Source: a virus (lineage: Duplodnaviria > Caudoviricetes). Taken from it: a stretch of 64,000 nt of DNA. The DNA is taken from positions 1,903-65,902 of IMG/VR virus record IMGVR_UViG_3300035698_021037; one strand, written 5' to 3'. Positions 4 through 46,026 of this stretch are shown in pieces. Positions within the stretch are counted from its first letter, which is position 1. Each line of letters begins with the position of its first letter. Made by a program: the position numbers and the translations under genes. The notes under the pieces are model-generated. The model made no database searches and was not told the origin of the DNA. It saw only the letters and a program-made list of their open reading frames with translations.

Positions 4-1089
4 TCATGCCAGTTCAACATTCAATCCAGACTCCTTTGCCTGAGATAGGATAATTCGCCAACTCTCTTTACGCGGAAAATCCGCTGGATCTTTTCCTGTG
101 GGAAAGAGAATACGCGCTTTCCCTTTTCGGAAGTTGCCGAAAGGATCATCCCATGCTTCGGTATTCACGTATTTATCCACGTAAGAGCCATCCTCGTAAA
201 CATCCGGATCGAGCGCAATAATCAGGGAGTCCCAGGCTTCCTGCATCATTATACTCTGGACAGCTGACACGTACTTTCCCAATAGCGCAACGGCTGGAGG
301 CCCAAGACGAATAACCGCAGGAATTCCTTCAACCAAAACGCCATAAGGATATTGTTTAGCCGCATCATACCCATAAAGCCACCACTGAACCGGATACCCG
401 GGCATGGTGTAATACTTAGGAATTTTTTTGTTGGGAGGACTTCCAAGCATTCGCGCCTGCCAGCCAATACACACTCCTTCTCTGTAAATAGGAAAAATAA
501 CCCTATTCTCGACAAGCGACGATCGGTAGTTCGAGCTTTCTGGAGCCTTCCAACAGAAATGAACTGCGTGGTACTTAGAGAGATAATCGATGTTAAAACC
601 ACGGCCTTCCATATACTGAATCGCCGGATGTGAGGCATCCAGTTTATCAATAGGCACACAAGACCCTGGAAGCGTCACAGGCTTAAACTCCACCTTCTCT
701 GCAGCCTTCGGAGGGACCCACAACTTCTTAGTTCTTCGGTAGATGTAGGATTTAAGCTGGTCTTTTAGATCCGTATAGACCTGTCGACAACGCTCGTTGT
801 AACATACCGCTAGCCACCCCCCGAATTCAATCTCTCCGTGTACGCTATCCGTACACGTCGTATTCCATCGATGATTAATGTACAGTCGAAATCGCCTATC
901 TTTACAGAAGGGGCAACAGACAGTGTAGTACTCGCCTCCACCATGCGGCGGGATAACTATTCTATCCTTCCAATTTAGCTTTTTATTGGGAAGTATGTGG
1001 TACCTCATTGGTTGCCCCAGACTTATTACATGCACCTCCCCAAAACGTTTCACCAAGGAGGCGTAGAGTCCGGGATTGAGAATTCCCAT
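4..1089 (-). CDS. DnaG-like DNA primase (Zn-binding domain + Toprim)
   Basis: CCPFC...CYNERC Zn ligands; FPI...GWQAR...PKY; Toprim VEG and DPD; C-terminal GKDPAD; directly downstream of the helicase gene. Confidence 0.85.
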   Translation of the reverse strand: MGILNPGLYASLVKRFGEVHVISLGQPMRYHILPNKKLNWKDRIVIPPHGGGEYYTVCCPFCKDRRFRLYINHRWNTTCTDSVHGEIEFGGWLAVCYNERCRQVYTDLKDQLKSYIYRRTKKLWVPPKAAEKVEFKPVTLPGSCVPIDKLDASHPAIQYMEGRGFNIDYLSKYHAVHFCWKAPESSNYRSSLVENRVIFPIYREGVCIGWQARMLGSPPNKKIPKYYTMPGYPVQWWLYGYDAAKQYPYGVLVEGIPAVIRLGPPAVALLGKYVSAVQSIMMQEAWDSLIIALDPDVYEDGSYVDKYVNTEAWDDPFGNFRKGKARILFPTGKDPADFPRKESWRIILSQAKESGLNVELA

Positions 1090-2564
1090 CAGACACCTCC
1101 ATCAGGATCATCCACTCCAGACGTCGCATAGTCATCGAGATCTGAGGGTACTACTCCTTTATCCTCAACGCGTGTCACGTAACCGCTACGCTCATCACGT
1201 TCGCATTCCAAATGTCTGTCAACAAACCTGCTAAACTTTCCTTGTAGTTCAATGAATCTATGATCAGCGCGCTGATTCCTAGTCTTAGACGCCGTAATGG
1301 TCGTCAAAGGAAACTCCGCTGTATTCGAAAGATCGATTGGGGATAGCGCAAAACAGGTGCTCACCAGCCACGCAAAGTTCTTAGCCTCTGCTGCATTGGT
1401 CCAGTGCATCATCTTCCCTGATTTCGACTTTGCTCCAGGAGTATCAACCTGGTGCGTAATCCATATGTTGATACCGTAAGCGCTCGCAATCTGACAGAAA
1501 CGATCGACCACTACAGTAACAAGCGCTCTAGCCTCTTCAATCTTTCGATTCTGCGCAATAACCCATCTGAGCATCATCGGCCAAAGCCAGTCAACGATCA
1601 CCAACTCAGGAAGCACGCCTTCTTTACTCATCGTCTCAACGATACCTTCTATCTCATCAGGACCTCCATTTCCCGCATGACTACCGCCTTCCGTTCTGCC
1701 ACTCATGTCAATCACGTGGATGTAATCTCCACAGACATTCTGACAAACTTTTAACCGTTTAATGATCGCTGGATCAATCTTATCCCTTGTTTTTTCAAAC
1801 TCTTTGATATCCGCGTGAGTTGTACAGGCATAAATACGATCATTGATATCTCCTTCGGCGGGAGACTCATACGTCAGAAATAACGCGTGCCGTTGCTGCA
1901 TACCCATCTTCACTAACATCTGAATACCCAACAACGTTTTACCACCGCTGGAGGGACCAAGTAATCCATATACCGCGCCGGGCTTCATTCCTCCACCAAG
2001 CAAAATATCGATAAAGTCGACACCACAAGGCCTTCTTGGAGATAGCCCAAACTTCTCACTTCCCGGCTTCATAGGAGACAGTATCTCCGCGCGCTGCACT
2101 CTTGTTGAAGAATAGCTCTTGGTCATAGCTGCAATAAGCGAAGGCACTTCAACGCCCGAAGCTATACCTTGTCGAACTTCATCAAGTACACGACGCTCGT
2201 CGAGAAACGTTTGCAACAGATCTTTTCCGTACGCCGGCGAAAATTTATTAGGCTGGGCGAAACAGTTTTCGACCATAATGTGAAGACTATCCACTAGACC
2301 CGGCATTTGATACTCCGGCTCTAGCTGCGCCCGTTTATCCACTTCGGCGTGAATATACTGAGGAACAATTAGCTCAGACTGTCCTTTGCTAATAAAATCC
2401 TGCATAATCGCCCATAGAATACGGTAATGATATTCGTTGGGCCTATTAAAGTCGTCGGGCGAAATACGGCCCACCGCCTCCGTTTGAACCTCCTTGCAAC
2501 GAAGCAAATGCATAACCAGCAAAAGAACGCTACTCGAAGGCATCTCTTGGAGTAAGTCACTCAT
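1089..2564 (-). CDS. DnaB-like (SF4/RecA-fold) replicative helicase
   Basis: GGMKPG, Walker A GPSSGGKT, FLTYE, Walker B LVIVDW, THQ and KTRN motifs; coupled to primase. Confidence 0.85.
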   Translation of the reverse strand: MSDLLQEMPSSSVLLLVMHLLRCKEVQTEAVGRISPDDFNRPNEYHYRILWAIMQDFISKGQSELIVPQYIHAEVDKRAQLEPEYQMPGLVDSLHIMVENCFAQPNKFSPAYGKDLLQTFLDERRVLDEVRQGIASGVEVPSLIAAMTKSYSSTRVQRAEILSPMKPGSEKFGLSPRRPCGVDFIDILLGGGMKPGAVYGLLGPSSGGKTLLGIQMLVKMGMQQRHALFLTYESPAEGDINDRIYACTTHADIKEFEKTRDKIDPAIIKRLKVCQNVCGDYIHVIDMSGRTEGGSHAGNGGPDEIEGIVETMSKEGVLPELVIVDWLWPMMLRWVIAQNRKIEEARALVTVVVDRFCQIASAYGINIWITHQVDTPGAKSKSGKMMHWTNAAEAKNFAWLVSTCFALSPIDLSNTAEFPLTTITASKTRNQRADHRFIELQGKFSRFVDRHLECERDERSGYVTRVEDKGVVPSDLDDYATSGVDDPDGGV

Positions 2565-3097
2565 TAACGCCCTCCCTCGTATTCTCGAAGCGCTATGCTA
2601 TAGTCTGGCTCCCGATCTAAAATCCTCTTGGCCTGTTCCTCATATACAGCTAAAACGGCGGGCAAGTTTTCCGAACGTCCCAACCAGTAACGAAGCACCA
2701 CAGGCACACGTAAGGTGTCATCAAGAAGCGTCTCTTCAAGCGACCTACCCATTTTCAACTCAATCGCTATAACTTGAGCTCCAGAACTAAGAAAGATGCG
2801 CCTCTCCATTTTCTCGGAGCCAGCCTTGTTATCAAAAGCTCGCCAAGCTGTACCAGATAAAAACTGATTTGGCCACAACTGACCGCTTCGATTACCGTAC
2901 ATACGGTGCATAAACCGAATGTAAGCATATGGGCTTTCGCCTGCATCAAGCAATCGGCCAGCCAACAGAAATAAAGACGAGTCACGCTTGTTGCTCATAC
3001 GACGAGCCTTTGGATTCCAAAGCTGCATTAACTCAACATACGCATCTTTTATTTCATCAACGATCTGCCAGATTTTTGTTTCTCGATCGTCACTCAT
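2564..3097 (-). CDS. hypothetical protein in replication operon
   Basis: 177 aa ORF overlapping both neighbours by 1-4 nt; no motif recognised. Confidence 0.6.
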   Translation of the reverse strand: MSDDRETKIWQIVDEIKDAYVELMQLWNPKARRMSNKRDSSLFLLAGRLLDAGESPYAYIRFMHRMYGNRSGQLWPNQFLSGTAWRAFDNKAGSEKMERRIFLSSGAQVIAIELKMGRSLEETLLDDTLRVPVVLRYWLGRSENLPAVLAVYEEQAKRILDREPDYSIALREYEGGR

Positions 3098-4575
3098 GTC
3101 GCCCTCTGTTGCAAGTACGCGTGTTCTTCATTCTTGAGTATCACCCAACCTCGTTTTTTGTAAGAGCGAATCCTAGCCAACGCGCGAGTACGAAAGTACC
3201 TATCGAATTCGTCTCCAAAATCCTCTAGAATTCCACCATTCTTTCCGTCTGAAATTCTAGACAGCCTACCAGGAATCTGGATATTACCGATCTCTCCCAT
3301 CCCTGCGTCCGCTCGAATCAAAACTTCAAGCCCGGTGAAATCTACACCTTGATTCCAGATTGGAGTAGCGATCGCTTTAAGCAAACTCCTCGCCTCAAAC
3401 ATCTCTTGTATTTGACGTAACTCATCTGAGGTCAACATCTGGTAATCTCGCGTCAATAATCCTCTATTCAACAGAGTCTTTTTCGCCTTTTCTCCCATGG
3501 TAGAATAGCAGGCCTGAAACTCAGGAAGCAGAGCTTTCAACGCAAACGCGTGTTGTACTGTCTGCACCATAATAAGTACCTGCGTATTTCCGTCATAACG
3601 TCTTGCCGCTTCCGCGATACACCGATTACGCACCTCGTTATACCACGCCCCATTCCTTAATCTTCCAACACGGGTCTTCTTGTCAATAGCATCGCCCGGC
3701 ACAGGATTGACGCGTACGTAGATTTGAGAAATGAGACCTAGCTTCAATGCTTCCTGATAAGGAAGATTATATATGACAGGACCAAATAAAGCCTCAATCA
3801 CGGGCTCGGCAAGATCAGAACGACCCGATGGCGAAGCGGTAAAACCAAACATCCTAGCATTACGAAATTTACCCAACATCTTTGCTGTCTGTTCGGCGGC
3901 GGCGCCATGGACTTCATCAAACAAAAGAAGACGGCAGTTCTCTACGTCTGTCTTCAGCAATGAACGTGTCGTCGTCACCGTAACCCTTCGAGGATTATTT
4001 TTACCTCCACCCACAATTCCTATCTGGGACTCTGGAAGAAATTGATGAAGCTGACGATAATGACTGTTTAGAATCGACACGCTAGGTACACACAATACAA
4101 TCTTCACGTCTTGATAAATCGCGCACACTAAACGCATAAGGTAGGACTTACCGTAAGCTGTAGGAGCTACGATCTGGCCGTGATCGTGTGAAATAATCGC
4201 CGCGATCGCCTTGTCCTGCCCGGGACGCAACGTAGTGAGCCTCGATAGATCATATTTTAACTGCGGGGAACTTCGAAGATCTTCAATACGATAAGAATAA
4301 TTAAATCGACGTAGAAGATCACAAACTCTTTCCGTTAACCCGGCTGGACATACTAAGGATCCAGAAGCGTCAAGAGTATAGAGAGCCCGCTGCTCCATCC
4401 TTTGCTTCTTAACCTCTTCCTTCTCTTCCTTCTCTTCCTCCAATTCTTCGGATTTAGTAAACCGCTTCTGATAATCAAAGTCCTGTCGCAAATGTGTATA
4501 CTGCAACTCCGGGCCCAAAAGCATCTCAAGATTTGGTGTGACTTGAATCAGGTTCCCCTGCCTGCGTATCAACAC
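3094..4575 (-). CDS. superfamily 2 DExH helicase (UvsW/XPB-like)
   Basis: LRPGQ Q-motif, PTAYGKS, DEVH, TASP, QGVD, QIPGRLSR. Start placed at the in-frame GTG at 4575 after GGGG to reduce overlap; the ORF track starts at 4713. Confidence 0.85.
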   Translation of the reverse strand: MLIRRQGNLIQVTPNLEMLLGPELQYTHLRQDFDYQKRFTKSEELEEEKEEKEEVKKQRMEQRALYTLDASGSLVCPAGLTERVCDLLRRFNYSYRIEDLRSSPQLKYDLSRLTTLRPGQDKAIAAIISHDHGQIVAPTAYGKSYLMRLVCAIYQDVKIVLCVPSVSILNSHYRQLHQFLPESQIGIVGGGKNNPRRVTVTTTRSLLKTDVENCRLLLFDEVHGAAAEQTAKMLGKFRNARMFGFTASPSGRSDLAEPVIEALFGPVIYNLPYQEALKLGLISQIYVRVNPVPGDAIDKKTRVGRLRNGAWYNEVRNRCIAEAARRYDGNTQVLIMVQTVQHAFALKALLPEFQACYSTMGEKAKKTLLNRGLLTRDYQMLTSDELRQIQEMFEARSLLKAIATPIWNQGVDFTGLEVLIRADAGMGEIGNIQIPGRLSRISDGKNGGILEDFGDEFDRYFRTRALARIRSYKKRGWVILKNEEHAYLQQRAT

Positions 4576-5041
4576 TACTACGTTTTCCCCAGTTTCTGGG
4601 CCTGACTTCAACAACACGGAATCTTCCATAATCTTCTCTCCATCCGTACGGGGAAATACCCAAGTACTTACCGCCGATGGACAATATCTCTGAGAAATCC
4701 TCGATACTAACACTTGCAGGTAGCATAAAATTAACGGCTACTACCGCGCCAGTTACAAACGCCTCATGCGCCTGCGTACCGAAATACCCTCGGTTTCTAA
4801 AATGACGTGTAAAAGCGTGCACAGGCCCATCGATAACTGATTCCGCCTGAATATTCTTAACGCCGTCCTGGCACCTAGCTAGCGCTCTTGCCCCGTAATC
4901 CAGAATACCACGCCACCATGTTTGCATAAAAACGACCTGCCCTTGGGAGTCTCGTGGCATAAGTACTGTATTCTTTTTTGGCTTTCTCACATTACCCAGA
5001 CAAGGAGTAATGAATTCCAATTTAGCTACAACCTCGATCAT
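4526..5041 (-). CDS. solo RAMP-superfamily (Cas7/Csm3-like) protein
   Basis: N-terminal LEFITPCLG; RDSQGQVVF..WWRGIL (cf. RD..G.P.IPGSS.KG.LR); HEAFVTGAVVAVNF; C-terminal Gly-rich loop GGKYLGISPYGWREDYGRFRV. Confidence 0.7.
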   Translation of the reverse strand: MIEVVAKLEFITPCLGNVRKPKKNTVLMPRDSQGQVVFMQTWWRGILDYGARALARCQDGVKNIQAESVIDGPVHAFTRHFRNRGYFGTQAHEAFVTGAVVAVNFMLPASVSIEDFSEILSIGGKYLGISPYGWREDYGRFRVVEVRPRNWGKRSSVDTQAGEPDSSHTKS

Positions 5042-5085
5042 ATCCTAGCTCCAACTCGTTCTGTGTCGCCCTTAGGAATTCCTGT

Positions 5086-5114
5086 AAATTAGCAAGTTAT
5101 TTGTCAGTTGTCAA
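5086..5114 (-). promoter_or_regulatory. sigma70-type promoter for the RAMP-helicase-primase operon
   Basis: TTGACA-N17-TAATTT with an extended TG, about 45 nt upstream of the ATG at 5041. Confidence 0.75.
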
Positions 5115-5160
5115 ACAGAAATACCCGTTGTATTGGTAATTTTTCAAAGAACTACAAGAT

Positions 5161-5194
5161 AAGGGGTAGAGGATAATTTGATCCCCTACCCCTT
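5161..5194 (-). terminator. intrinsic terminator-like hairpin after sbcC
   Basis: Minus strand AAGGGGTAGGGGAT-caaatt-ATCCTCTACCCCTT (one G-U pair), just after the sbcC stop codon. Confidence 0.7.
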
Positions 5195-5199
5195 GTGTT

Positions 5200-7317
5200 T
5201 TATCCAAGAACGATTGCGTTGTCGCACGTCGAACGAAGCGCGTCCTCATGCGTATTCACCAGCACCTGCCACGCACCGGACGAGGCAAGCTTTCTTGTGC
5301 TATTCAAAACATTAACCACATGCTCGATGTTTCCTTCGTCTAACCAAGTCGTCGGTTCATCAAGCACTAACAGTCCGAGCTTCGAAGCAAACAGATCGTT
5401 CACAGCAAACCGAAACGCAATAGCCAACACCACTCGTTGACCACCAGAGAGTCTCGCCGCACGTGGTCTCCATCCTCCCGGGAAATCACAAACGAAAGAC
5501 AAATCAGACTGAAGCGCACAAGTGAAAGGTGACTCAAAAAGCTGAAGATACTTGAAGAGCCTAATGTTGATAGCGTCCCGAAATGACTGCGCTACTATGT
5601 TGGGTAAGTTATCTCGATGAAACACAACACGAGATCTCGTAAGCAACTCGTGATACGTGCGTCTGGATTTTGACTCGAGATCCTTTTTACGCATGTCCTC
5701 CAGCTTCTCAGACAGCGAAACTTTCTGTCGGGTAGCTTCGTCTATCTTACCCTGGGACTCACCTATAACGCGACGCAGGCCGTCTGCACGCATAAGCGAC
5801 TCTCGAATACTCTCATACTCCTCGACGGATAAGAGCTGCTGACGAAGATTATTGCTATGCTTTTCCTTTTCCTCCAACAAAACAATTGTTGTCTTCAATG
5901 AGGCGGCGCGATCACGAGCTCTTTCCATATGGTTACGCTGTTGAGTAAACTGCGCGTCGAGACTCTGATACTCCTGCAAAGACTTTGTAATCACAGCCAG
6001 CTGCTGATCTGACACAGGCTCTACCTCTCCAATTTCAGAGAGACGATTACGCACTTCAGTACATCTGGCCATGTAGTTGCGAGACCATTCAGAGTACTCC
6101 GCCGCTCTTTGGTCGTAACTTTTCCACTCCGTCTCTAAAGCGTTCAATTTTGACGCGTAAAGTTGAGAGGACTTTTCAGCGCGCGCCTTATCAGCTTCAG
6201 CGTCGGTTATACGCTTTGGAGCATTCTTCACTTCCGATTGACAAAAAGCGCAATGGCCGTCACTCCGAATCGCGTCAATAAACCTGCAGCTAATTTCCCA
6301 TTCAGTAGTCAGATCCTGAAGCTGCTTCCTAACGTTGTCGATCTCATCGCGAGAGATTGTAGGCGGCACAGGGGACTCCCTACGAGACTGGGATAACAGC
6401 TTAGCCTCCGCAACACACCGCTCTAGCTCCTGCCGCTTCTGACGAAGATCAATAAGCTCTTTATACCTCAGTTGCAATTGAGGTAAATCCTTGGCGATAG
6501 TATCTCGACGAATCTCAGCAGCGGTTGCAAAACCTATCGCGTCTTTGACAAGCGCCGCTGCACGAACATAGCCATCACGCGTCTCACGCAGATCGGACTC
6601 TAAAGTTGTGAAAGTCTTCAGCTCCATATCAGCGTTGCTGTGCGACGCCATGTCTTCTCTCATGGCTGTTTCGTCAATACTTAGTATATCAGTCTCGGCA
6701 TTCCTCCTCGTTTCGATAGCAGCATCAAGAGCTACAGAGATAACCTCTTTAAGCTCCTTCTCAATTTCATCGATACGATCCTCGTAAGAAACAAGCTGTA
6801 TACGAGAAAGTTCTCCATGAAGCGCTTCTCGAATCTCCTCAAGTCGATACGTTCCAAACAACCGTTGAAAGGCAACGTTTCTCTCGGAGGGGCGTTCAAA
6901 GATAACCGAATCAAGCTTCTCCTGATGTACAAAGATGGTGCGACCAAGAAGGTCTGGAGTCACACCAAGAATTGGCCACAGGTTTTCGTTGACATCACGA
7001 GCGCTTCCAAATCTTTGAGATCCTATCTTAAGCGAGCATGAAGACGTCTTAAGCTGTCGACGAATACACCCGACCTCGCCGTTAACCTCGAACTCAACCT
7101 CAACAAAACCCCTGTCAGCGCCGTGCCGGATGTCGTCCAGCTTAACTCCGTCATTAGGACTTTCCCCGGTAAAGGCAAAGTAGATACCGCGTAACAGGTT
7201 AGACTTTCCAGACCCGTTTGGCCCAAAGATACCATTTACTCCGGGTGTGAAAGCTACGGTCAAGTCCTCATGCTGACAGAAATTATGCAACGTAGCTGTC
7301 AACAATTTCATAAACAA
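5200..7317 (-). CDS. sbcC: SbcC/Rad50-like SMC ATPase (gp46-like)
   Basis: GPNGSGKS, coiled coil with central CAFC zinc hook, LSGGQ signature, LDEPT Walker B, TH loop. Confidence 0.92.
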   Translation of the reverse strand: MFMKLLTATLHNFCQHEDLTVAFTPGVNGIFGPNGSGKSNLLRGIYFAFTGESPNDGVKLDDIRHGADRGFVEVEFEVNGEVGCIRRQLKTSSCSLKIGSQRFGSARDVNENLWPILGVTPDLLGRTIFVHQEKLDSVIFERPSERNVAFQRLFGTYRLEEIREALHGELSRIQLVSYEDRIDEIEKELKEVISVALDAAIETRRNAETDILSIDETAMREDMASHSNADMELKTFTTLESDLRETRDGYVRAAALVKDAIGFATAAEIRRDTIAKDLPQLQLRYKELIDLRQKRQELERCVAEAKLLSQSRRESPVPPTISRDEIDNVRKQLQDLTTEWEISCRFIDAIRSDGHCAFCQSEVKNAPKRITDAEADKARAEKSSQLYASKLNALETEWKSYDQRAAEYSEWSRNYMARCTEVRNRLSEIGEVEPVSDQQLAVITKSLQEYQSLDAQFTQQRNHMERARDRAASLKTTIVLLEEKEKHSNNLRQQLLSVEEYESIRESLMRADGLRRVIGESQGKIDEATRQKVSLSEKLEDMRKKDLESKSRRTYHELLTRSRVVFHRDNLPNIVAQSFRDAINIRLFKYLQLFESPFTCALQSDLSFVCDFPGGWRPRAARLSGGQRVVLAIAFRFAVNDLFASKLGLLVLDEPTTWLDEGNIEHVVNVLNSTRKLASSGAWQVLVNTHEDALRSTCDNAIVLG

Positions 7318-7369
7318 ATCTCCTCATTCTGGATCTTTACAAGCTAAAAGGATAGACTTAGCATCTTCC

Positions 7370-8569
7370 TCACTTTTCCTGCAACATCGCGATCAACTTA
7401 GCGAGAACTTCCGTTATGGTCTCGCGCACACCAACAGAATTACCCTTATAGCCAAAAGACAGGATACACCCATAAACAGAACCTTCTGGGTAGTTTGGCG
7501 CGGCAGGATGCAGCACGTTCACGTTATCCAAATTGACCAGTATCTCGTTATTGTGCGCATCAGTAAGTGTTACTAAATTTGGTACGCCGTGTCCCCTATA
7601 CGCCCGCAGGATCTCGCGCGCCGAAATTGGCCAAGTCTCAGCCTTTGGAGTCTCGGGTGTTACAGGCGCCGGCTTCTCAACCTGGGAGTGTGAATCGTAG
7701 GTCTTCGGAATCACGATAGGCGGCCGTTTGTCGCTCTCTGAAAAGAAATGTACGTGATCTTTCTTAGGCGTCTCTGGCGCCGCAGGGTCCGTATTCTGGA
7801 TCACGGTCTTTGTTGGTACAGAAACAGCCGATGAGGTGACGATATTAGGGGGCTCGGGCCGGCGGTGCGACCTAACGTTTTGGGTAAACATGGTTTGTTC
7901 AAGAAGCTTCACTTCCAGAATAACACCATGTTCTCTGAGCTCCTCGAAAGACTTCACAATGCTAAACCTTCCGAGTCCGCCAATAACTCCCATCCCGTGG
8001 TTACGTCCAAGACAAGAACAGTCGGAGTAATCAGTAAGGGAATTCAAACAAGTGGGAGAGCACTTTATCTGCAAACGCTTGGGCTGAATAACGTAGATAC
8101 GATTGAAACGGCGCAAAGTACGCTGCGTGATAAAATAGAACCAGGCACGAGAAAGTTTCCAATAATTCTCGACTTTCAGCCACTCAGCCGACGGACAGTT
8201 GAAACGCTTGAGCCACTTTCTTTCAGACTCAAGACTAGCCTCAGTCTTTTTACCCGGCAGCCTCAGCAGCAAATCGCTATGCTTCGGCGCATAAACAACT
8301 GGTAAGGCGCAATCTCCGCTCCAGATGTTGTTCACACAATCCATCGGCAGGCTTACAGCAGGCTTGGTTGCCGAATAACGATCGGACTTCACTACGTCTG
8401 CAGCGGCCCTAAAAGCATAGTTGACCGCGCTGTCGTCTTTCGGTGTGTTCTCGGAACTCATCAAACTTTCTCCTTTGACCAAGTTAACGCTTTTTGGAAC
8501 TGCTCTTCCAAAACGATGTAAGGCAGCTTCAGCTGCTTTTGCTTTCAACGCCGCGTCTTCGTGTGACAT
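7370..8569 (-). CDS. multidomain hypothetical protein (Cys/His motif, Pro-rich linker, FlbD-like C-terminus)
   Basis: CSPTC...CSCLGRNHG motif; C-terminal LVNLDNV...VRETITEVLAKL resembles FlbD-like domains. Confidence 0.5.
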   Translation of the reverse strand: MSHEDAALKAKAAEAALHRFGRAVPKSVNLVKGESLMSSENTPKDDSAVNYAFRAAADVVKSDRYSATKPAVSLPMDCVNNIWSGDCALPVVYAPKHSDLLLRLPGKKTEASLESERKWLKRFNCPSAEWLKVENYWKLSRAWFYFITQRTLRRFNRIYVIQPKRLQIKCSPTCLNSLTDYSDCSCLGRNHGMGVIGGLGRFSIVKSFEELREHGVILEVKLLEQTMFTQNVRSHRRPEPPNIVTSSAVSVPTKTVIQNTDPAAPETPKKDHVHFFSESDKRPPIVIPKTYDSHSQVEKPAPVTPETPKAETWPISAREILRAYRGHGVPNLVTLTDAHNNEILVNLDNVNVLHPAAPNYPEGSVYGCILSFGYKGNSVGVRETITEVLAKLIAMLQEK

Positions 8570-8877: not shown

Positions 8878-9468
8878 TTATGCCGCTCCCAATCCAAAAC
8901 TACGTCCCTCTACTGAAATCTCACCAGGACAAACGTTTTCAATTATCCAATAGACTGCTTGAGTTGTTCTCCTACTAACGTTATCTGCAAGATTATCGTA
9001 TGTAACCGTATCAAGCGCGTCTTTTAGCCTACCTTTAGCGGCCCAAACTCCGGGAAGATACCATATCTCCCATCGACGGCCATCTTCTCCCGTTCGGCTA
9101 CGGAGGCATTCAAAGCCACAGCTTTCCATAATCTTGGCCTTATTCTGATAAGCATCACTCTTCTTACCCGTCGAAGACCCGATTAAGTGTTGTACGTAAA
9201 TAGGCGAAAAATTTTTACATCTATCTCCACATCGAAGATAAGTATTCCCAGAGAAATATGGAAATAGATCAGGGTCTGGCGTCGAGATAGGAAGAGGTTC
9301 ATAGTAAGGTACTTTTCGCATCCCTCCATTTCCGTCGCTACATACCCAGCTCTCGCCAAGCAAACAAGCTTCAATTGCAGTCATATCAAACTTCGTGAGC
9401 TCTGAAATCGTCATGCTACAGTTGTTGCGGCTAGAATCCTTACCATAAGTTCGTGTGACAATTCTCAT
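8878..9468 (-). CDS. hypothetical protein
   Basis: 196 aa ORF with a 4-nt overlap with sbcD. Confidence 0.55.
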   Translation of the reverse strand: MRIVTRTYGKDSSRNNCSMTISELTKFDMTAIEACLLGESWVCSDGNGGMRKVPYYEPLPISTPDPDLFPYFSGNTYLRCGDRCKNFSPIYVQHLIGSSTGKKSDAYQNKAKIMESCGFECLRSRTGEDGRRWEIWYLPGVWAAKGRLKDALDTVTYDNLADNVSRRTTQAVYWIIENVCPGEISVEGRSFGLGAA

Positions 9469-10571
9469 TCCAAAGCTACCCCCATAGCGTCGCGCTGTAC
9501 CGCCAACACGTTACGTACCTCCTCCACGTTGTTTGTCCTCAGCAGACGCACCAGGAACCCGTGAAGCTCATTCTCGCTAGTCTTATCGACAAGTTGATCG
9601 AGACAGGTTTCAGCAGAGACCTTATTAGGGGCGACGTTGTCAATTATCTTACCGTTCGAAACCAGCTCGGGACGAATAGGTACAAGCCAACGCTCGCAGC
9701 CTCGATCGTTACACGCTGAGTTTAAATCCTCCTGCGCATCTTCTATGTCTGATTGAAAAATAACGACGACATAGGGCTTAGCTACCTCCTCAGGGAAGCT
9801 AGGGTCTGAGTCTCTGGGATCAGGAATTGATGTTCGAATAGTCTCGCACGTTGCTTTGAGTGTTTCCTTGCTAACAACTGTACCTCGATAAAATGGACGT
9901 GTCGCCAAGGGGATTCTCGTGATCTTGTTGTCCTTCCAAAGAATCACGGACTTATCTGGTGGCTCGTCAATCGCTTGAAGATTCGTCGTTCCCACGTAGT
10001 AAAAAGAATGACCTCCTATATTAAAGGTGTAGTCATGATGAATGTCGCCCATAAGAATGAGCTTAACATGCTCTGGAATCTGCGAAGCTTCAAAGTCCCA
10101 AGCAGTGTTTCCAATGTCATCCTCGAAAGGAAGAGCTTGTTTGAACGCTTGATGAAGACAAAGAGCTCCAGCTTCCTTAGGGATATGCTTCAGATCTTCC
10201 GCGAGTGTCTCTGGATCTCGGTAGTCGAGAAAGTACGTGTTTTCATCAAAGAGACACATCTTTTTATTCACGTGGATAATATTCTGATGAGACTCTACCC
10301 AGGGAGGATCAGAAAGATCGTGTTGTCCTTGAATCGCATAGACGGGCACTCCACCTTTTTGAAGTCGATCCATCTGTGTATGAAACTCGATGACTGTTCG
10401 ACTGTCTAACTTCTTCGCGTCGAAGAGATCACCTAAAATAACCAGAGACTCTTTTTCTCGAAGACAGATATCAACAATCTGTTTCAAAGCAAAATAACCA
10501 TCTCCTCGCAATGATGGATGACGTGACCATGTATAAGGGGCAAGATGATTGTCGCCTGTAACAATAGGCAA
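9465..10571 (-). CDS. sbcD: SbcD/Mre11-like metallophosphoesterase nuclease (gp47-like)
   Basis: GDNH, GDLFD, GQHD, LH and GDIH motifs; SbcC nearby. Confidence 0.9.
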   Translation of the reverse strand: MPIVTGDNHLAPYTWSRHPSLRGDGYFALKQIVDICLREKESLVILGDLFDAKKLDSRTVIEFHTQMDRLQKGGVPVYAIQGQHDLSDPPWVESHQNIIHVNKKMCLFDENTYFLDYRDPETLAEDLKHIPKEAGALCLHQAFKQALPFEDDIGNTAWDFEASQIPEHVKLILMGDIHHDYTFNIGGHSFYYVGTTNLQAIDEPPDKSVILWKDNKITRIPLATRPFYRGTVVSKETLKATCETIRTSIPDPRDSDPSFPEEVAKPYVVVIFQSDIEDAQEDLNSACNDRGCERWLVPIRPELVSNGKIIDNVAPNKVSAETCLDQLVDKTSENELHGFLVRLLRTNNVEEVRNVLAVQRDAMGVALE

Positions 10572-11558: not shown

Positions 11559-11971
11559 TGCTCTTCAATATCGGGTAATGACGCTCCAACCTCAATGATC
11601 CCCATCTGTTCCGCTAAAAAGTTGAGAGTTCCCATAGGTGGTACGCTAGACCAGGCATTCTCGGTTACCAAGTATATCTCGCATACCTGATTACGAATCT
11701 TGAAGTTGACGAATTCTGCGAGAGCTACCCATTCACCTTCCTTCAAGTGTGTCTGAATCTCTCCAATAACGAGCTGTGCATCTGGTAATTCATCGAAGAA
11801 AAAGATACTACCTTGAAGCAGCGCCGGATCTTCTTGGTAGGTTATTTTAGGGTAGCAGCTGGAGTTGGTAAAATGTAAGAACGATAAGTAGCTACCCAAT
11901 TTCTTCCCGCTTGTTAGGTTACGAGAGTGGCGTAAAATCGATAGCTGTCCCACTGGAAATGATTTCGTCAT
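11555..11971 (-). CDS. hypothetical protein
   Basis: 138 aa ORF overlapping both neighbours. Confidence 0.5.
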   Translation of the reverse strand: MTKSFPVGQLSILRHSRNLTSGKKLGSYLSFLHFTNSSCYPKITYQEDPALLQGSIFFFDELPDAQLVIGEIQTHLKEGEWVALAEFVNFKIRNQVCEIYLVTENAWSSVPPMGTLNFLAEQMGIIEVGASLPDIEEQ

Positions 11972-13277
11972 GATTTACATCCAAGGTTGTAATCTCTCCC
12001 CACGAACAAATTGTATCTCGAAAGAGGTGTGTCGACATTCCCGTTGATGTGAGTACCCATAACGTTGGGATGGGTTGTTCAACGGGAGCTATACCTGCCC
12101 CGTCCGTAAAGTAGACAACAAAATCTGGTGGTGGGTAGAGTTCTGGTATCTTCTTAAATGCGGGACGGAAATCGGTCCCTCCTCGACCAGAGAACTTCTC
12201 GATCTTCATGTACCTTTTGTACTCCACGATTTTTGTGACCCCAGCGTCTACATGCATAACGTGCACAAACGTTCCACGTTCTGCAAGCCCTTTAACCTCT
12301 GGCTCGACATATTGAAGCTCTTGCTTGCTCATTGACATACTTGTATCAATAACAAACAGAGCTACAAGTCCGTGTTTGCGGATGCGTCCAAAATGTTGTG
12401 GACAACGTCTGGAGGGTCTTCGTTTACTAGGTACAATATCCTTACGCGCGTACTTGCCTTCGTACTTACGAAGATGAACGTACCAAGGTATCTTGGACGG
12501 CTGTTCAAGAGCTTTAACGTACTCCTCAGCGTCCAGCGATTTAAATCCTCGCGCAACACTCTCTTTCAGCTCATCCGTTACCTGTTTAACAACGTTAACG
12601 ATCGCCGCGTCTTTAATAACGTCGGATACTTCATTGCCAGAGTCTGACTCATTCTCAAGGATAACTTCTAGCTTATACTCTCCGTTACCATCGTTGACGA
12701 GCTTCATCTCAATCTTGTTCTTCACTTCTTCAATCCGACCCAAGATGAGTTTACAATACGCTTCGGTTGTCAAATTAGGGGGAAAGTTGAAGTCCTTAAT
12801 AAGCAAAGGCTTAAACGCCGAGGTAATAATAGCCGGTGCGTCAATAAATTGATTAACCACAAGATCAGCGGCTATTCCCTCTATTTCTATTCCATACTTA
12901 TCCGCAAGTTTCCTACCTCGAGAGCCTACATGACCTTGAATAAAGTGAAGAGTTTCATGTTTCAGAACTTCTCGAAATGGGTTGATATCAAGCAATCCCA
13001 ACTTCTTTAACGCAGGAAAACAGAGTCGCATAACCATGGTTCCATCTGCGATTACTCCAATAGAAGCAGGGGCGGGTATGCGTGGAGTATCTTCAGCTCG
13101 AATGTCCATGTGATGTAAAAACAGCGCGTAGCCAATGTCACCCTGATCCTGGTAATCTTTACCATGAAGTAGCGTATAGATGACACGACTAACTAACTTC
13201 TGCTCCTCTTCGGTTAGCGGCCGGCTACCCAACGGCTGCTTCTTGCGCTGCTTGTTGCTGTTGGTTGATCCAGTCAT
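11919..13277 (-). CDS. HEXXH metallopeptidase-like + VWA domain protein (DUF2201-like)
   Basis: HETLH...AADLVVN; MIDAS DTSMSMS, GRGGTDF and FTDG; adjacent to a MoxR ATPase. Confidence 0.85.
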   Translation of the reverse strand: MTGSTNSNKQRKKQPLGSRPLTEEEQKLVSRVIYTLLHGKDYQDQGDIGYALFLHHMDIRAEDTPRIPAPASIGVIADGTMVMRLCFPALKKLGLLDINPFREVLKHETLHFIQGHVGSRGRKLADKYGIEIEGIAADLVVNQFIDAPAIITSAFKPLLIKDFNFPPNLTTEAYCKLILGRIEEVKNKIEMKLVNDGNGEYKLEVILENESDSGNEVSDVIKDAAIVNVVKQVTDELKESVARGFKSLDAEEYVKALEQPSKIPWYVHLRKYEGKYARKDIVPSKRRPSRRCPQHFGRIRKHGLVALFVIDTSMSMSKQELQYVEPEVKGLAERGTFVHVMHVDAGVTKIVEYKRYMKIEKFSGRGGTDFRPAFKKIPELYPPPDFVVYFTDGAGIAPVEQPIPTLWVLTSTGMSTHLFRDTICSWGEITTLDVNHDEIISSGTAIDFTPLS

Positions 13278-14469
13278 CGTATGTCTCCGAAGCCTTAATC
13301 ATCTTTTCGTTAAGGGTCTCTCGCTTGGTAGAGAGAAAGGTGAGCATCTCGTTTTGAAGTGAACCACTAGAAATTGAGTTCAGTAACTCATCAGCCATAT
13401 CCATTCGCGTATCCGCGATTACTTCCATGAAGTCAAAGAGATAGGTTTTTGCTTTCAAATCAATCTCTTTTTTGAGTACCTCAATATCTTGCTTTCGAGA
13501 GAGAAGCGCTCGCAGCTCGAAGCTAGTTACTCCAATCAGCGCTGTCTTTCCTTCTTTAATCCACTTTAAAATGCGGTTCATGTGAACGTTATGCTCAGAC
13601 TCGTCTGCGTCGAGGAACTGTGCGACTGAGATTGGATATAAGTCGGGGTTGTTTCCTTTTGAAATAAACGTGTTAAAAGCAACAGCAACGGCGTTACTAA
13701 CGTTGATCTCAACCATCTTGATGATCAGATCTCTGCTAATATTCGCTTGTGTCCACTTTTGAAAGGAGTGGCCTATGTTGGCCCATGCGCGAGAATCCAC
13801 AGCATCAATAAATGACTGGTTGAGAAACAAGAATTGAAATAGCAGCTCCGGAAGCGTCTTGTTCCTACTCCAATAAAGAAGCTTCTCGCTAGCTTTTGGT
13901 TGTACAGGAAGAACCAGAAACCGCGACATCAGGGCCTCATCAACTGATTTGACAGTAATGTACTCAGCGGTTTCCGGGTTGGTCGCTGCGATCTGAATCC
14001 AACCCGGGTGCATCTTCAACTCTCCCATCCGACCACTAATGATCATACGCAGCTGGTCTTGATGTTCAACGCTGCCAGAGAAGACCTCGTCATGAAATAG
14101 ACAACCACGTCCTGTAGCTGTGTTTGGTACTCGTCCAAAGCCGGGGATACCATCTGATGCCCTATGGACCGTATGACGATCCGCCTCACCGCCATTTACG
14201 ATTTCTTGAAGTCCAACATTATCTTCAAAAACCGTTGCTCCGACGTGCCAAGGTCCAAATTCCGCGTCCGCCGTATCACAAGCTTCTTCTACTACTCGAC
14301 TTTTACCTATGCCATGGCTACCGAGTAACAGTACTACCTTCCCCAGGTCGGGATGCCTGTCATCAACCCCGGGGATCTCCTTGAGTTCCGCCACTAAGAT
14401 CTTGTGGATTTCCTCCAGGCTGAAGCGTGTTGAGCTCTCCCATGCCTGTGTTAGCTTGCTCTTCGCCAT
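13225..14469 (-). CDS. MoxR-like AAA+ ATPase
   Basis: GSHGIGKS, FHDEV, AATNP, ALMSRF. Confidence 0.85.
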   Translation of the reverse strand: MAKSKLTQAWESSTRFSLEEIHKILVAELKEIPGVDDRHPDLGKVVLLLGSHGIGKSRVVEEACDTADAEFGPWHVGATVFEDNVGLQEIVNGGEADRHTVHRASDGIPGFGRVPNTATGRGCLFHDEVFSGSVEHQDQLRMIISGRMGELKMHPGWIQIAATNPETAEYITVKSVDEALMSRFLVLPVQPKASEKLLYWSRNKTLPELLFQFLFLNQSFIDAVDSRAWANIGHSFQKWTQANISRDLIIKMVEINVSNAVAVAFNTFISKGNNPDLYPISVAQFLDADESEHNVHMNRILKWIKEGKTALIGVTSFELRALLSRKQDIEVLKKEIDLKAKTYLFDFMEVIADTRMDMADELLNSISSGSLQNEMLTFLSTKRETLNEKMIKASETYDDWINQQQQAAQEAAVG

Positions 14470-17162: not shown

Positions 17163-19907
17163 TTATATCGTTACGTTTTTCCACGCGCTTGAAACCCGCT
17201 CAAAGAACGATCGTTTAATAACCCAGCCGGATCCGTTATCCGCATCTTCGATATCCTCTACCAGCGCCTTTGATTTAATAAGCGATTGCGCGACATCGGA
17301 AAAGCTTGGATGCGGCAGCCCCAGTTTTTGAAGAGTGTGTAACAATTTTTTGCGTGAGATGTAAAGCAACTGATGCTCAGTATCGACCAAGATCGTTGCA
17401 TTACGTAATTCGGGCAAACTCCCATGCTTATACGCGTTATAAAATGCTTTATTGATTTTCTTGATCTCATTACGCCGGTACAGCTCGCAAAGAAGCAACA
17501 TCATACGTTCACCAACGGAGTACATTTCTGGTGCGATTGAAAGATACTTCATTATCGTTTCCGCTTCTTCGAAAACCTCACGGAAAGCAACCCCTTTGAA
17601 CTCATGCTCCAGCCACTTTCGCATACTGTGTAGCACATCAAAGGGGAAGATACCCCCCATCTCAATCTTGTAATCCCGTTCCTGCAGCCACCCGATATAT
17701 CGAAGCATCGCCGGCATGTTCAAAATATTACCCGCTTGCTGTGTTATTCCAGGTGAATGGATGAATAGCCAGGTTCCACACGCGGATACCGCGTACTGTT
17801 CCAGTATTCCCAATTTGGCGATGATGGGTCGTGTAACGCTGTTGGCCCACAGGCTAAGTCCCTTACCTCCCAAGACATCTTTATCGAAGTAACAAGGGAT
17901 GTCATGCGCCGACGCCTTTTCAATAAGAGAGTCGTGTATCGCAGCTTTTGATCTACTCGTCAGCACGTTTTGACCGAGCTTTACCAAATTCATGGAATCA
18001 ACAATCTTGTTGCCAATATAGACACCCGTATCGTTTTCTGTGCCCACCAGCCCTATTGGAATAAAAGGCGTATCAAAAACAGGAGCCAGCATGTTTGATA
18101 AGATAGTGGCCGAGGTGGCTAAGAATGTTGAAGAAGCCTTCGCATTTGAAATCCACGAATTCACAACATTGGAGTTCAGCGTCAACTGTGGCAGATAAAT
18201 GTTTCGAAATGGGAGATCTTTCTCAGGCTGTATGAGAAACACAGATCGGCCTTGAATGATTTTTCCATGCTGATAGGAGAAAGACGGGAATGTAAACGAT
18301 CCGTCCTTTTGCCATCCTATTCGGCCATCGGAGGACTCACTCGTAGGTGTATGAAATCTCTGTGCAATATTCATGAGTTTCTTTTCCCAGCCTCTCAAGA
18401 TGAACGGCTTCGGCCGACCTTTATCCATCATGAATCTAGTAAGCCAGCGGCCAGGATCCTTCTCGAAATCATCGTGTTCAGCTGTAAAGGTAAGATCAGG
18501 TTTGCCTTGAGACTGAATTATCCCTACAACATAGTGTTTACCGGTTGGACGATGATGCACGGTTTTTCTGATTTCCATATGAAAATCAGTAACCTGATAT
18601 GACTTCTTTCCTCGACGTGTAATGTACCATCCTGAGGGCTCGGCGCGTACTTCCATCGTAGACCAGCTTGTTCGTTTCACTTCGTCAACATGCCCAAGAC
18701 GAAGTTTCATTTCTCGCAGGTCGTGTCGCGCACAGTCATAGAGGATTTTTTCTGTCTCTCCCGCTGTAAGATTCATTTGCGTGAGAACAGTAGGGCAGTC
18801 ATTTTCAGGGATGCTGAGGAACCACGATTTGAACACGCGTTCCCACGGGGATGAATAACGATTCATCTTGTTCAAGATATCCATGGGCGCCATCTGACCG
18901 AGCATCTCTTCCATTGTCCTGGTTGTTGGTCTCGGCTTCATAGAGATGCATGAGTTTGCAACCATACGCGCCTGAATGAAAGTATCTACAGTAGGCTTAG
19001 GCTCCCATAAAATAACCTTCTGCGCACGTATGGACGACCAGGATCCTTCTGCCGTCAACCGATTATAAATAACCAAAGGAAGAGGTTTTGCCAGCGCATG
19101 GAAATGTTTTCTTTGCAGTTTTAGCCCAAGCCAAGGATCGTTGATCGCATAAACTACCCGCTCCTGATCACCAAGATCGTTGATCCAGGCGAGACCAGAG
19201 TCTACAGCTTCGGGATCATATCCATCGATAATGTATCGAATCTCGTGGTGTTTGGAGGCGAAGATGAAGGATCGTATTCTGCCGGGTAGATCATAATATG
19301 GAATGACCAGCGCATGCCGCATTCCTTTTGGAGATAGGCTTGCATTGGGGATATGATTCAGAATACCTTCTTGAGACAGCATTCCAATATAGTTATCCAT
19401 CCTACCTTTCCAGGCCCTCGTACTGGTTCCGCTCCATAGCCCCTTGTCCATCAATAGTTCTACCCACTCAGGCTGAACTCCTTTATCATATTCATGCCTG
19501 GAGTTTTCCCACAGCGCAATAGGACGTACCCTATTGATCTCATGCATACGCTGGTAGTAAGATATAGTATCGGGATCAAGAACAGAGCCTGGAAGCGAAA
19601 CAAGGCCCTCGGATTGCAGAATCCCCATAAGTCTTACAAGGCCTTTTGTTTCGCGAAGACGCTGGAAGAACCCAACGCCGTCAGAAGCGTAGCCACAAGA
19701 TCGACAATAGACCCAAGGACCCTGGTCAGACAATGAATCTTCTTGTGGATCTAGGAAAACTCTAAGTGACTTACCACTGTCATTACAAAACGGACAGACT
19801 GCAGGATGTGGAAAACCCGCTACGGTAGTCTTGACCCGTTCATTAAGCGCCTGTAAGATGGACTTAGCTGGTATAAGAGCATTTAGGTTTTGAATTGAGG
19901 ACGGCAT
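17163..19907 (-). CDS. large protein with primase-type Zn finger and DUF927-like region
   Basis: CPFC...CRSC N-terminus; LVIPYYDLPGRI primase-like segment; GRIGWQKDGSFTFP DUF927-like; no clear Toprim acidic motif or Walker A. Confidence 0.5.
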   Translation of the reverse strand: MPSSIQNLNALIPAKSILQALNERVKTTVAGFPHPAVCPFCNDSGKSLRVFLDPQEDSLSDQGPWVYCRSCGYASDGVGFFQRLRETKGLVRLMGILQSEGLVSLPGSVLDPDTISYYQRMHEINRVRPIALWENSRHEYDKGVQPEWVELLMDKGLWSGTSTRAWKGRMDNYIGMLSQEGILNHIPNASLSPKGMRHALVIPYYDLPGRIRSFIFASKHHEIRYIIDGYDPEAVDSGLAWINDLGDQERVVYAINDPWLGLKLQRKHFHALAKPLPLVIYNRLTAEGSWSSIRAQKVILWEPKPTVDTFIQARMVANSCISMKPRPTTRTMEEMLGQMAPMDILNKMNRYSSPWERVFKSWFLSIPENDCPTVLTQMNLTAGETEKILYDCARHDLREMKLRLGHVDEVKRTSWSTMEVRAEPSGWYITRRGKKSYQVTDFHMEIRKTVHHRPTGKHYVVGIIQSQGKPDLTFTAEHDDFEKDPGRWLTRFMMDKGRPKPFILRGWEKKLMNIAQRFHTPTSESSDGRIGWQKDGSFTFPSFSYQHGKIIQGRSVFLIQPEKDLPFRNIYLPQLTLNSNVVNSWISNAKASSTFLATSATILSNMLAPVFDTPFIPIGLVGTENDTGVYIGNKIVDSMNLVKLGQNVLTSRSKAAIHDSLIEKASAHDIPCYFDKDVLGGKGLSLWANSVTRPIIAKLGILEQYAVSACGTWLFIHSPGITQQAGNILNMPAMLRYIGWLQERDYKIEMGGIFPFDVLHSMRKWLEHEFKGVAFREVFEEAETIMKYLSIAPEMYSVGERMMLLLCELYRRNEIKKINKAFYNAYKHGSLPELRNATILVDTEHQLLYISRKKLLHTLQKLGLPHPSFSDVAQSLIKSKALVEDIEDADNGSGWVIKRSFFERVSSAWKNVTI

Positions 19908-45591: not shown

Positions 45592-46026
45592 CTAGTCAGA
45601 TCCTCCAGCGCCCATTATACGTTTTAAGTAACCCATATAGCTAAGATACATCGGACCCTGCGCCAGAGACTCAGAGCCTCCAGTAGCAGCCCTATGCGCA
45701 ATATCACGTATTCTCGTCCTATGTCGCGCGCGGTAGTGTCTTTCCATTGCGCCCAGCATATCAATAGCTAGGCAATCAAGGACCTCGTCACGTTTTTGCG
45801 CTGTTGGGTCCGATCTTGTAGCTTGAACGCGTATGCCGGCTTCATCACGATTGAAACAGTTATGGATAGCTACCGTATCCGCCGGCGCGGGATTACCTAA
45901 TCCGCCGCTATCAAAGAAATCAGGCCATTCGCGACGAGACTTTGCCACGACCGCTCTGTCTATCTTGCCCATGTTTTCCATGATCCACTTGATCTTGGAT
46001 TCCATGTTTTTATCTATTACGCCCAT
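45592..46026 (-). CDS. hypothetical protein
   Basis: 144 aa ORF overlapping the sigma factor stop. Confidence 0.5.
   Translation of the reverse strand: MGVIDKNMESKIKWIMENMGKIDRAVVAKSRREWPDFFDSGGLGNPAPADTVAIHNCFNRDEAGIRVQATRSDPTAQKRDEVLDCLAIDMLGAMERHYRARHRTRIRDIAHRAATGGSESLAQGPMYLSYMGYLKRIMGAGGSD

Follow-up and report, generated by a model that had tools for sequence, protein, structure and literature searches.

The DNA analyzed here is a stretch of 64,000 nucleotides (nt), referred to as the window, that covers bases 1903-65902 of the 65.9-kb IMG/VR virus record IMGVR_UViG_3300035698_021037, which is estimated to be ~32% complete. Genes for a large terminase, tail sheath, and baseplate wedge identify the source of the window as a large tailed phage. 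Its minus strand carries a short open reading frame (ORF) that a first-pass annotation, made from the letters alone, had described as a solo Cas7/Csm3-like RAMP protein at the head of a helicase-primase operon. The RAMP gene and the gene that follows it are located as follows:

4526-5041, minus strand: RAMP gene, encoding P0001 (171 aa, ATG start), a predicted single-RRM (RNA recognition motif) RAMP and distant Vipr relative
3094-4632, minus strand: UvsW/Rad25-like superfamily 2 (SF2) helicase (Pfam ResIII/DEAD/Helicase_C, phrog_16), the 5′ end of which overlaps the RAMP gene

The four motif groups from which a RAMP had been proposed are all in the translation of P0001, at the positions expected of a RAMP in an AlphaFold2 model built from 128 sequences (predicted local distance difference test [pLDDT], 94.3; predicted TM-score, 0.83). 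Specifically, LEFITPCLG closes strand beta1 (residues 2-10), RD..G.V.F...WWRG leads into helix alpha1 (40-54), E93...G98..V.V.F is carried by strands 86-95 and 100-107, and GG..LGISPYG...YGRF makes up the loop joining helix alpha2 (113-126) to the last strand (141-148). The secondary structure order assigned by DSSP (b1-a1-b2-b3-a2-[Gly loop]-b4) is that of an RRM/ferredoxin-like core. A Gly-rich loop between alpha2 and the last strand is a hallmark of RAMPs, and residues G124, G128, S130, P131, and G139 lie in this interval. The model further contains a long beta-hairpin (75-83/86-95) that might be the counterpart of the thumb with which RAMPs intercalate into bound nucleic acid, only short strands and no helical bundle in the beta1-alpha1 region, and a variable C-terminal tail of ~22 residues predicted with low confidence. 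Foldseek searches of the PDB returned 172 matches at an E value of ≤0.001, headed by Csm3, type VII Cas7, and gRAMP domains (E, 5e-7; TM-scores, 0.5 to 0.6). Exhaustive alignment to 48,161 chains with VIA-align yielded a top Z of 12.0 (143 to 147 residues, 3.2 to 4.2 Å) and 33 chains at a Z of ≥8; among the best 50 matches, ranks 1 to 49 came without exception from CRISPR-Cas entries, with chains of the Cas7, Cas5, and Cas6 types, and the first unrelated fold appeared at a Z of 5.7. An earlier model from two sequences (pLDDT, 68) likewise had only CRISPR RAMPs as top matches, and a viral structure library contributed four proteins at an E value of ≤0.001, one of them named a RAMP superfamily protein. 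In the ESM Atlas, the matches were unnamed viral clusters at scores of 0.92 to 0.93 and, at 0.85, a cluster of RAMPs that can be taken as no more than a lead. As modeled, P0001 is thus a minimal single-RRM RAMP-fold protein.

When 1.84 billion cluster representatives (clusters at 50% identity) were searched exhaustively with HMMER, a family of 209 proteins emerged at an E value of ≤0.001, 138 of them at ≤1e-10, almost all 110 to 220 aa long; a word-index homolog search had recovered a single relative. The viral contigs in IMG/VR that carry members reach 229 kb. Of 151 stored proteins, 128 with lengths of 140 to 230 aa were aligned, after 23 fragments or long forms had been dropped. Also discarded was P0100, a 1750-aa protein among the 150 listed matches, which is a calcium-binding-repeat protein that matches in seven stretches through 'GRFRV'-like low complexity. 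The 128-member alignment consists of a conserved core followed by variable tails. G139 is invariant, and R79, H92, E93, G98, P108, G124, G128, S130, P131, and F141 are conserved in ≥90% of the members. The core is basic, with a median net charge of +5 (123 members). No family for P0001 was found in Pfam, PHROGs, PADLOC, or NCBIfam, and tblastn of P0001 against 50,697 phage records gave no match. Longer fused forms were not found, nor was any relative in 185,579 prokaryote genomes searched with one sub-alignment pattern and one motif variant, both of which are weak evidence. For genomic comparisons we used the record of the window itself (G000); a complete relative of 200,903 bases with direct terminal repeats (G001); a RAMP-anchored set of 19 viral loci on contigs of 36 to 229 kb, with RAMP identities down to 27% and several near-duplicates, in which L002 and L003 are the closest relatives of the window locus; and a helicase-anchored set of 80 scanned loci, 79 of which could be assessed for the presence of the RAMP gene. 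The clade that carries the RAMP-helicase pair consists of large tailed phages with contigs of roughly 160 to 230 kb.

The fold assignment stood, whereas membership in the Cas7/Csm3 group was not supported. None of the 128 family members matches PF03787 (Pfam RAMPs), type III partners are missing from the locus, and the nearest relative lies elsewhere, as shown below. In addition, no acidic residue of the beta1-alpha1 stretch is invariant or 90% conserved in alignments of either 128 or 25 members, and P0001 has N/T in the beta1-alpha1 loop where many members carry D. This loop is where we take the catalytic Asp of Csm3 to lie, the position being assumed rather than aligned.

To our knowledge, RAMPs were long known only from CRISPR-Cas. 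The VIPR preprints of 2026 add a viral, guide-using RAMP branch, argued to predate CRISPR (10.64898/2026.04.26.720920). These are the viral RAMP systems with tandem-repeat guides to which the first-pass annotation had alluded. As the preprint describes them, VIPR systems combine a minimal viral RAMP (Vipr) with an accessory vap gene and vrRNAs made of 9 to 16 YNNGG pentamers with a 3′ tail. The preprint distinguishes seven types, of which types III-V have nuclease or helicase vaps, and reports some loci with only NNNGG, YNNNG, or NNNNG repeats, found via Evo2 scores; vipr genes are flanked by long intergenic regions, and 2,664 Viprs are catalogued (bioRxiv 10.64898/2026.04.26.720920). In the Vipr of Escherichia phage SUSP1, the Gly-loop residues D177, W178, and R179 are described as reading GGY (10.64898/2026.04.26.720927).

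Sequence profiles connect our family to this branch. Searched against 177,635 PDB sequences, the family profile gave four matches at an E value of ≤10, with no Cas7, Csm3, or Cmr4 chain among them; the best match and sole RAMP was the 'SUSP1 Vipr protein' (E, 0.043; 64 residues). Within the SUSP1 genome, the profile hit the vipr gene only (E, 2.5e-4), and hhalign of the RAMP family against 40 SUSP1-type Viprs reached a probability of 94.8% (E, 5e-8; 42 columns). The reverse search, with a Vipr hidden Markov model (HMM) run on all ORFs of the window, the 200-kb relative, and the 19 loci, returned nothing beyond a single true Vipr and 10 rows that belong to the RAMP family (E, 0.0016 to 0.03). 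In a weak HMM alignment, the GGY-reading positions D177, W178, and R179 of SUSP1 Vipr correspond to P131, Y132, and G133. On this profile evidence, the family appears to be a deep-branching, distant relative of the viral Vipr proteins and not a member of Cas7/Csm3.

The kinship with Vipr makes the question of guides central. Our pentamer-guide scanners recovered 4 of 4 SUSP1 vrRNAs as a positive control. In G000 and in G001, of which the first 200,000 of 200,903 bases were scanned, no period-5 tract rose above the level of shuffled sequence, and L002 had no pentamer guide tract. Across the 19 RAMP-anchored and 80 helicase-anchored loci (738 kb), each set contained one tract, and both lie on the same contig, that of a 169-kb relative. 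There, a compact true VIPR (L021:7282-7938; same contig as L111:2780-3468) directly precedes the RAMP copy. Its Vipr homologue (194 aa, phrog_4652) aligns with Viprs over 130 columns in hhalign (probability, 95.3%), and 12 CNNNG pentamers in one tract come after the ORF. This tract belongs to a separate true vipr gene, and the phage carries two different RAMPs side by side. The RAMP gene also has little flanking space. In the window, the upstream spacer is 158 nt and the downstream side is an overlap; in the relatives, the upstream gap mostly measures 11 to 166 nt and the downstream gap -86 to 113 nt, apart from one locus with 248 nt downstream. Gaps of 470 to 720 nt after the helicase in L031, L024, L034, and L026 were considered as guide space and proved to be coding, and period-6 signals in G000 and G001 reflect codon periodicity. 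Period-6 and period-21 DNA repeats at 31045-31851 were likewise rejected as guide arrays, since they encode the SPVISVP and SPSASPS linkers of a 523-aa protein. This Cys-rich protein (30802-32373, minus strand) has two Ser/Pro-rich repeat linkers (SPVISVP x10 and SPSASPS runs).

The same holds for CRISPR components. Neither the window nor G001 contains a CRISPR-like array by Tandem Repeats Finder, PF03787 had no match in the record of the window or in G001, and the PADLOC matches were confined to weak ones of the Cas3 type at the helicase core. The first-pass view that neither a CRISPR array, cas genes, nor a guide array accompanies the RAMP gene in the window is thus borne out and extends to a complete 200-kb relative. 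A conventional type III or IV locus elsewhere in the genome, which had been named as a possible source of the protein, was not detected in that relative by the array and PF03787 searches; the window's own record covers about a third of its genome.

These data bear directly on the possibility that the protein is a true Vipr acting on an unrecognized guide (degenerate NNNNG, distant, or supplied in trans), which would bind the DNA of competing elements with the helicase as its Vap. Sequence and fold tie the family to Vipr, and helicase vaps and loci with minimal repeats are among the variants that the preprint text reports (10.64898/2026.04.26.720920); the gene is also dispensable and repeatedly lost, like accessory genes of conflict. 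We nevertheless consider this unlikely. No period-5 tract with two fixed positions was found in G001 (200,000 of 200,903 bases) or in the record of the window. The gaps beside the gene are mostly too short for guides of ~100 nt, whereas the preprint describes long flanks, and the residues that read GGY in SUSP1 are replaced in the alignment. Moreover, the helicase occurs in loci without a RAMP gene, among core replication genes, and the RAMP co-diverges with it at the same rate, and in one phage a true Vipr, distinct from the RAMP and equipped with a tract, lies beside it.

The remaining genes of the module encode the following proteins:

5200-7317, minus strand: SbcC/Rad50-like ATPase (Pfam SMC_N/AAA_23, phrog_77), the upstream neighbor of the RAMP gene
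9465-10571, minus strand: SbcD/Mre11-like phosphoesterase (Pfam Metallophos, phrog_100), part of the same module
2564-3097, minus strand: 177-aa protein with no family match, between the helicase and the DnaB-like gene
1089-2564, minus strand: DnaB-like replicative helicase (phrog_19; E, 2.4e-17)
4-1089, minus strand: DNA primase (phrog_47; E, 3e-32)

Read along the minus strand, the order is thus SbcD-like, SbcC-like, RAMP, SF2 helicase, 177-aa protein, DnaB-like helicase, and primase. The SF2 helicase is 23% identical to UvsW of T4-like cyanophages and 28% identical to a Microcystis phage helicase; Microcystis phage MaMV-DC, which has the related helicase, gave no match to the RAMP. As the first-pass annotation had it, the RAMP gene heads a string of helicase, DnaB, and primase genes behind a promoter-like site, and the arrangement is widely kept. 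SbcC, RAMP, and helicase genes follow each other on one strand in 19 of 19 RAMP-anchored loci, with SbcD in 18 of 19 and tblastn matches downstream of the helicase for DnaB in 16 and for primase in 18. Starting from the helicase, 60 of 79 loci have the RAMP gene directly upstream, and the gap between the two genes has a median of 26 nt; 4-nt overlaps occur in some loci. Where both genes are present, they diverge together. Pairwise identities of RAMP and helicase correlate with a Spearman coefficient of 0.86 over 1128 pairs from 48 distinct loci, which are not independent of one another, and the median identity is 44% for both proteins. The RAMP gene therefore co-diverges vertically with the helicase.

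The pairing is not obligatory. The RAMP gene is absent from 19 of the 79 helicase-anchored loci, most of which have SbcC and an ORF of ~310 to 350 aa directly before the helicase (e.g., L041, L047, and L093). On a quick tree of 67 distinct helicases, presence and absence require 11 changes, at least 7 of them forced by well-supported branches, compared with an average of 13 changes for shuffled labels. The gene has thus been lost or gained many times and is not needed for replication as such; its repeated loss argues against an essential replication role. Loss of this kind, together with a RAMP fold that has no guide of its own, might suggest a decoy for counter-defense or competition, which would soak up type III or type I crRNAs or the vrRNAs of rivals, or poison their filaments; elements are reported to compete for Vipr and vrRNA components (10.64898/2026.10.15.759431). 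We think this very unlikely. A fixed position and co-divergence with a core helicase would be unusual for anti-defense genes, which move and turn over quickly. The GGY-binding residues are also not kept.

The region between the SbcC-like gene and the RAMP gene contains two putative control elements:

5086-5114, minus strand: promoter-like site read from the sequence (TTGACA at 5114-5109, a 17-nt spacer, and TG-n-TAATTT at 5094-5086)
5161-5194, minus strand: hairpin with a 14-bp stem, directly after the stop codon of the SbcC-like gene, in a region that folds with a z of -3.0

Both had been pointed out before, as a TTGACA-N17-TAATTT promoter and a terminator-like hairpin, and both hold in part. 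The promoter-like site is present, and its -35 hexamer (TTGACAACT) and TGnTAnnnT are kept in L002 and L003; a consensus promoter scanner, however, made no call at TTGACA-N17-TAATTT, the second hexamer of which agrees with TATAAT at 3 of 6 positions. Similarly, the stem of the hairpin exists and its pairing is preserved through base changes in L002 and L003, but a terminator scanner made no call because the T-run that it requires is not there. The hairpin is likely a terminator or an RNA-end stabilizer that separates the SbcC-like gene from the RAMP-helicase string. The proposed overlap between the RAMP ORF and the helicase gene is confirmed. From 4713 onward no stop interrupts the helicase frame, in which an ATG at 4632 gives an overlap of ~107 nt in the window, and the N-terminal helicase motif IRRxGxLIxV, common to 16 homologues, is encoded within the last ~47 nt of the RAMP gene.

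The conservation of a hairpin directly before the gene in the three most closely related genomes is one of the observations that would fit an RNA-processing or regulatory RAMP, that is, a Cas6-like endoribonuclease or a regulator of translation or mRNA stability of the replication operon acting through H92, E93, and R79. The near-invariant His-Glu pair and Arg on the sheet would be in keeping with this, and Cas6 chains are among the structural matches (Z, 6 to 8). The best structural matches, however, are of the Cas7/Cas5 type and not Cas6. Most relatives have a gap of only 11 to 84 nt behind another ORF, the hairpin having been examined in the three closest genomes, and the 5′ leader of the RAMP gene is not conserved in the comparison with L002 and L003. 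We therefore give this explanation little credence.

Other genes of the region vary among relatives. The 177-aa protein has tblastn relatives at 57 to 61% identity in L002 and L003 only, among the 19 loci, and its slot is filled by an ORF in L031, L024, L034, and L026; its sole match among PDB sequences was a weak one to phage 'gp87' (E, 0.069). Conceivably, it might serve the RAMP as a Cas11-like small subunit. A family of ~300- to 350-aa proteins lies between SbcC and the RAMP or helicase gene in most relatives (L031:7050-7985, L023:6904-7920, L025:6906-7904, and L036:6697-7596; also before the helicase in L041, L047, and L093). Its members are 24 to 36% identical, share GGWHE and DPRW-type motifs, and have no Pfam family; tblastn found no match in the window or in G001. 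At 11919-14469 on the minus strand, the window encodes an ATPase (phrog_1297) and a 452-aa partner (phrog_1314, labeled HNH endonuclease in PHROGs), a pair kept with the replication module in two close relatives at 59 to 69% identity. A 914-aa ORF (17163-19907, minus strand) has only a faint primase-family match (E, 6.6e-4), and a sigma-factor-like protein (46017-46775, minus strand; phrog_351; E, 5.5e-15) is encoded among structural genes. Tandem repeats of 93/186 bp at 63203-63808 (~4 copies, 69 to 80% matches) lie inside ORF 62957-63970, which is located beside tail genes and probably encodes a repeat-domain structural protein. Finally, the public sequencing runs listed for window positions 2500-7400 are all DNA runs labeled as salt lake metagenome, with no RNA run among them; the run with the best share of words (0.71) may be the source sample of the record's assembly.

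Our preferred reading, which we hold tentatively, is that the RAMP is a Vipr-related nucleic-acid-binding partner of the UvsW-like helicase that has no guide array. It builds on the fold, the link to Vipr, the absence of repeat guides, the conserved gene order, the divergence in step with the helicase, and the fact that the gene is dispensable; from these we infer the binding of nucleic acid, the functional pairing, and the kind of substrate. Most likely, the RAMP would be an accessory subunit, basic and able to bind nucleic acid, that coats or clamps single strands of RNA or DNA in replication and recombination intermediates, such as RNA-DNA hybrids, R-loops, primers, or displaced strands, which it may contact through helix alpha1, the Gly-rich loop, and the face of the beta-sheet. 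It could then deliver such substrates to the helicase, which is translated directly after it, or restrict the substrates of that enzyme. T4 UvsW unwinds R-loops and branched DNA. Several observations weigh against this proposal. Besides the loci without a RAMP gene and the 11 changes on the helicase tree described above, helicases with and without a RAMP keep the same N-terminal motif, and no helicase feature tracks the RAMP. The near-invariant H92-E93 and R79, for which the proposal does not account, would also fit a catalytic site or base-specific reading. The similarity to Vipr is confined to the 42 profile columns that correspond to alpha2, the Gly loop, and beta4, and degenerate NNNNG guides or guides of another design would escape the pentamer scanners.

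A more specific and rather improbable version is that this RAMP lineage, with no dedicated guide array, polymerizes on transcripts, primers, or displaced strands and thereby makes or holds R-loops for the UvsW-like helicase. At its boldest, this version would have the RAMP establish RNA-primed firing of origins, ahead of DnaB and primase. Were this version true, viral RAMPs would have had a role in DNA metabolism before, or beside, their recruitment to RNA-guided interference in VIPR and CRISPR.

That viruses have non-CRISPR RAMPs is already known, as is the RAMP fold. The window adds what, on modeled structure, appears to be a second, sizeable family of viral RAMPs that keeps the RNA-binding architecture, lacks repeat guides, and is tied to a replication/repair helicase. 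The accessible text of the VIPR preprints does not describe a Vipr-like family that has no guides and is coupled to a UvsW-like helicase within replication modules, and literature searches found none elsewhere; the supplementary Vipr lists might contain it. If the protein binds nucleic acid without a programmed guide, as we favor, it would illustrate the capabilities of a RAMP prior to, or in the absence of, programmability, which bears on the origin of RNA-guided systems. As a partner of the helicase, it would be a new accessory factor for UvsW-type enzymes. Should it use a cryptic guide instead, the range of VIPR guide designs would be widened.

Among known systems, the Cas7 group (Csm3, Cmr4, gRAMP/Cas7-11 domains, and type VII Cas7) is structurally close to P0001, with Z values of 9.4 to 12.0 over 123 to 149 aligned residues and Foldseek E values of ~1e-6 to 5e-7; the beta1 TPxxG and alpha1-start motifs also presumably resemble those of Csm3, a likeness that we assume rather than computed. 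However, identities in the structural alignments are 8 to 16%, and P0001 is much smaller and has no insertions. None of the 128 members matches PF03787, no acidic residue is invariant at the presumed place of the catalytic Asp of Csm3/Cmr4, and replication genes, not Cas10, Csm/Cmr partners, or an array, surround the RAMP gene. The type IV-A system (Csf2 and DinG) similarly pairs a RAMP backbone with an SF2 helicase rather than a nuclease, and Csf2 chains align with a Z of 9.2 to 9.4. It differs in that Csf1, Csf3, Cas6, and a CRISPR array belong to type IV, none of which was found with the RAMP, and in that the type IV helicase is of the DinG/XPD type, whereas the helicase of the RAMP is UvsW/Rad25-like. 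In T4, UvsW, an SF2 helicase for R-loops and branched DNA, is encoded beside a small accessory gene, uvsW.1. The product of the latter, encoded downstream of UvsW, is a small helical protein and not a RAMP, and the nearest cultured phages with a related helicase, MaMV-DC included, are without this RAMP.

The closest comparison is with Vipr itself (type II, from Escherichia phage SUSP1 and a Pseudomonas fulva prophage; 10.64898/2026.04.26.720920 and 10.64898/2026.04.26.720927). Unlike Vipr, our family has no GGY/NN or other period-5 guide tract and only short flanking spacers; a helical bundle is missing from the beta1-alpha1 region of its model, and other residues take the place of those that read GGY in the Gly loop. 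The RAMP gene is embedded in a replication/recombination module with which it co-diverges, and it coexists with a true VIPR in one phage. The helicase gene always follows that of the RAMP and might be compared with the helicase vaps of types III-V, but the same helicase also occurs in loci without the RAMP. On the side of likeness, both are phage-encoded single-RRM proteins of 150 to 200 aa with a Gly-rich loop before the last strand, and both come without cas genes or a CRISPR array and with a helicase as neighbor, the latter as reported for some VIPR types. SUSP1 Vipr is, moreover, the only solved RAMP that the family profile matches.

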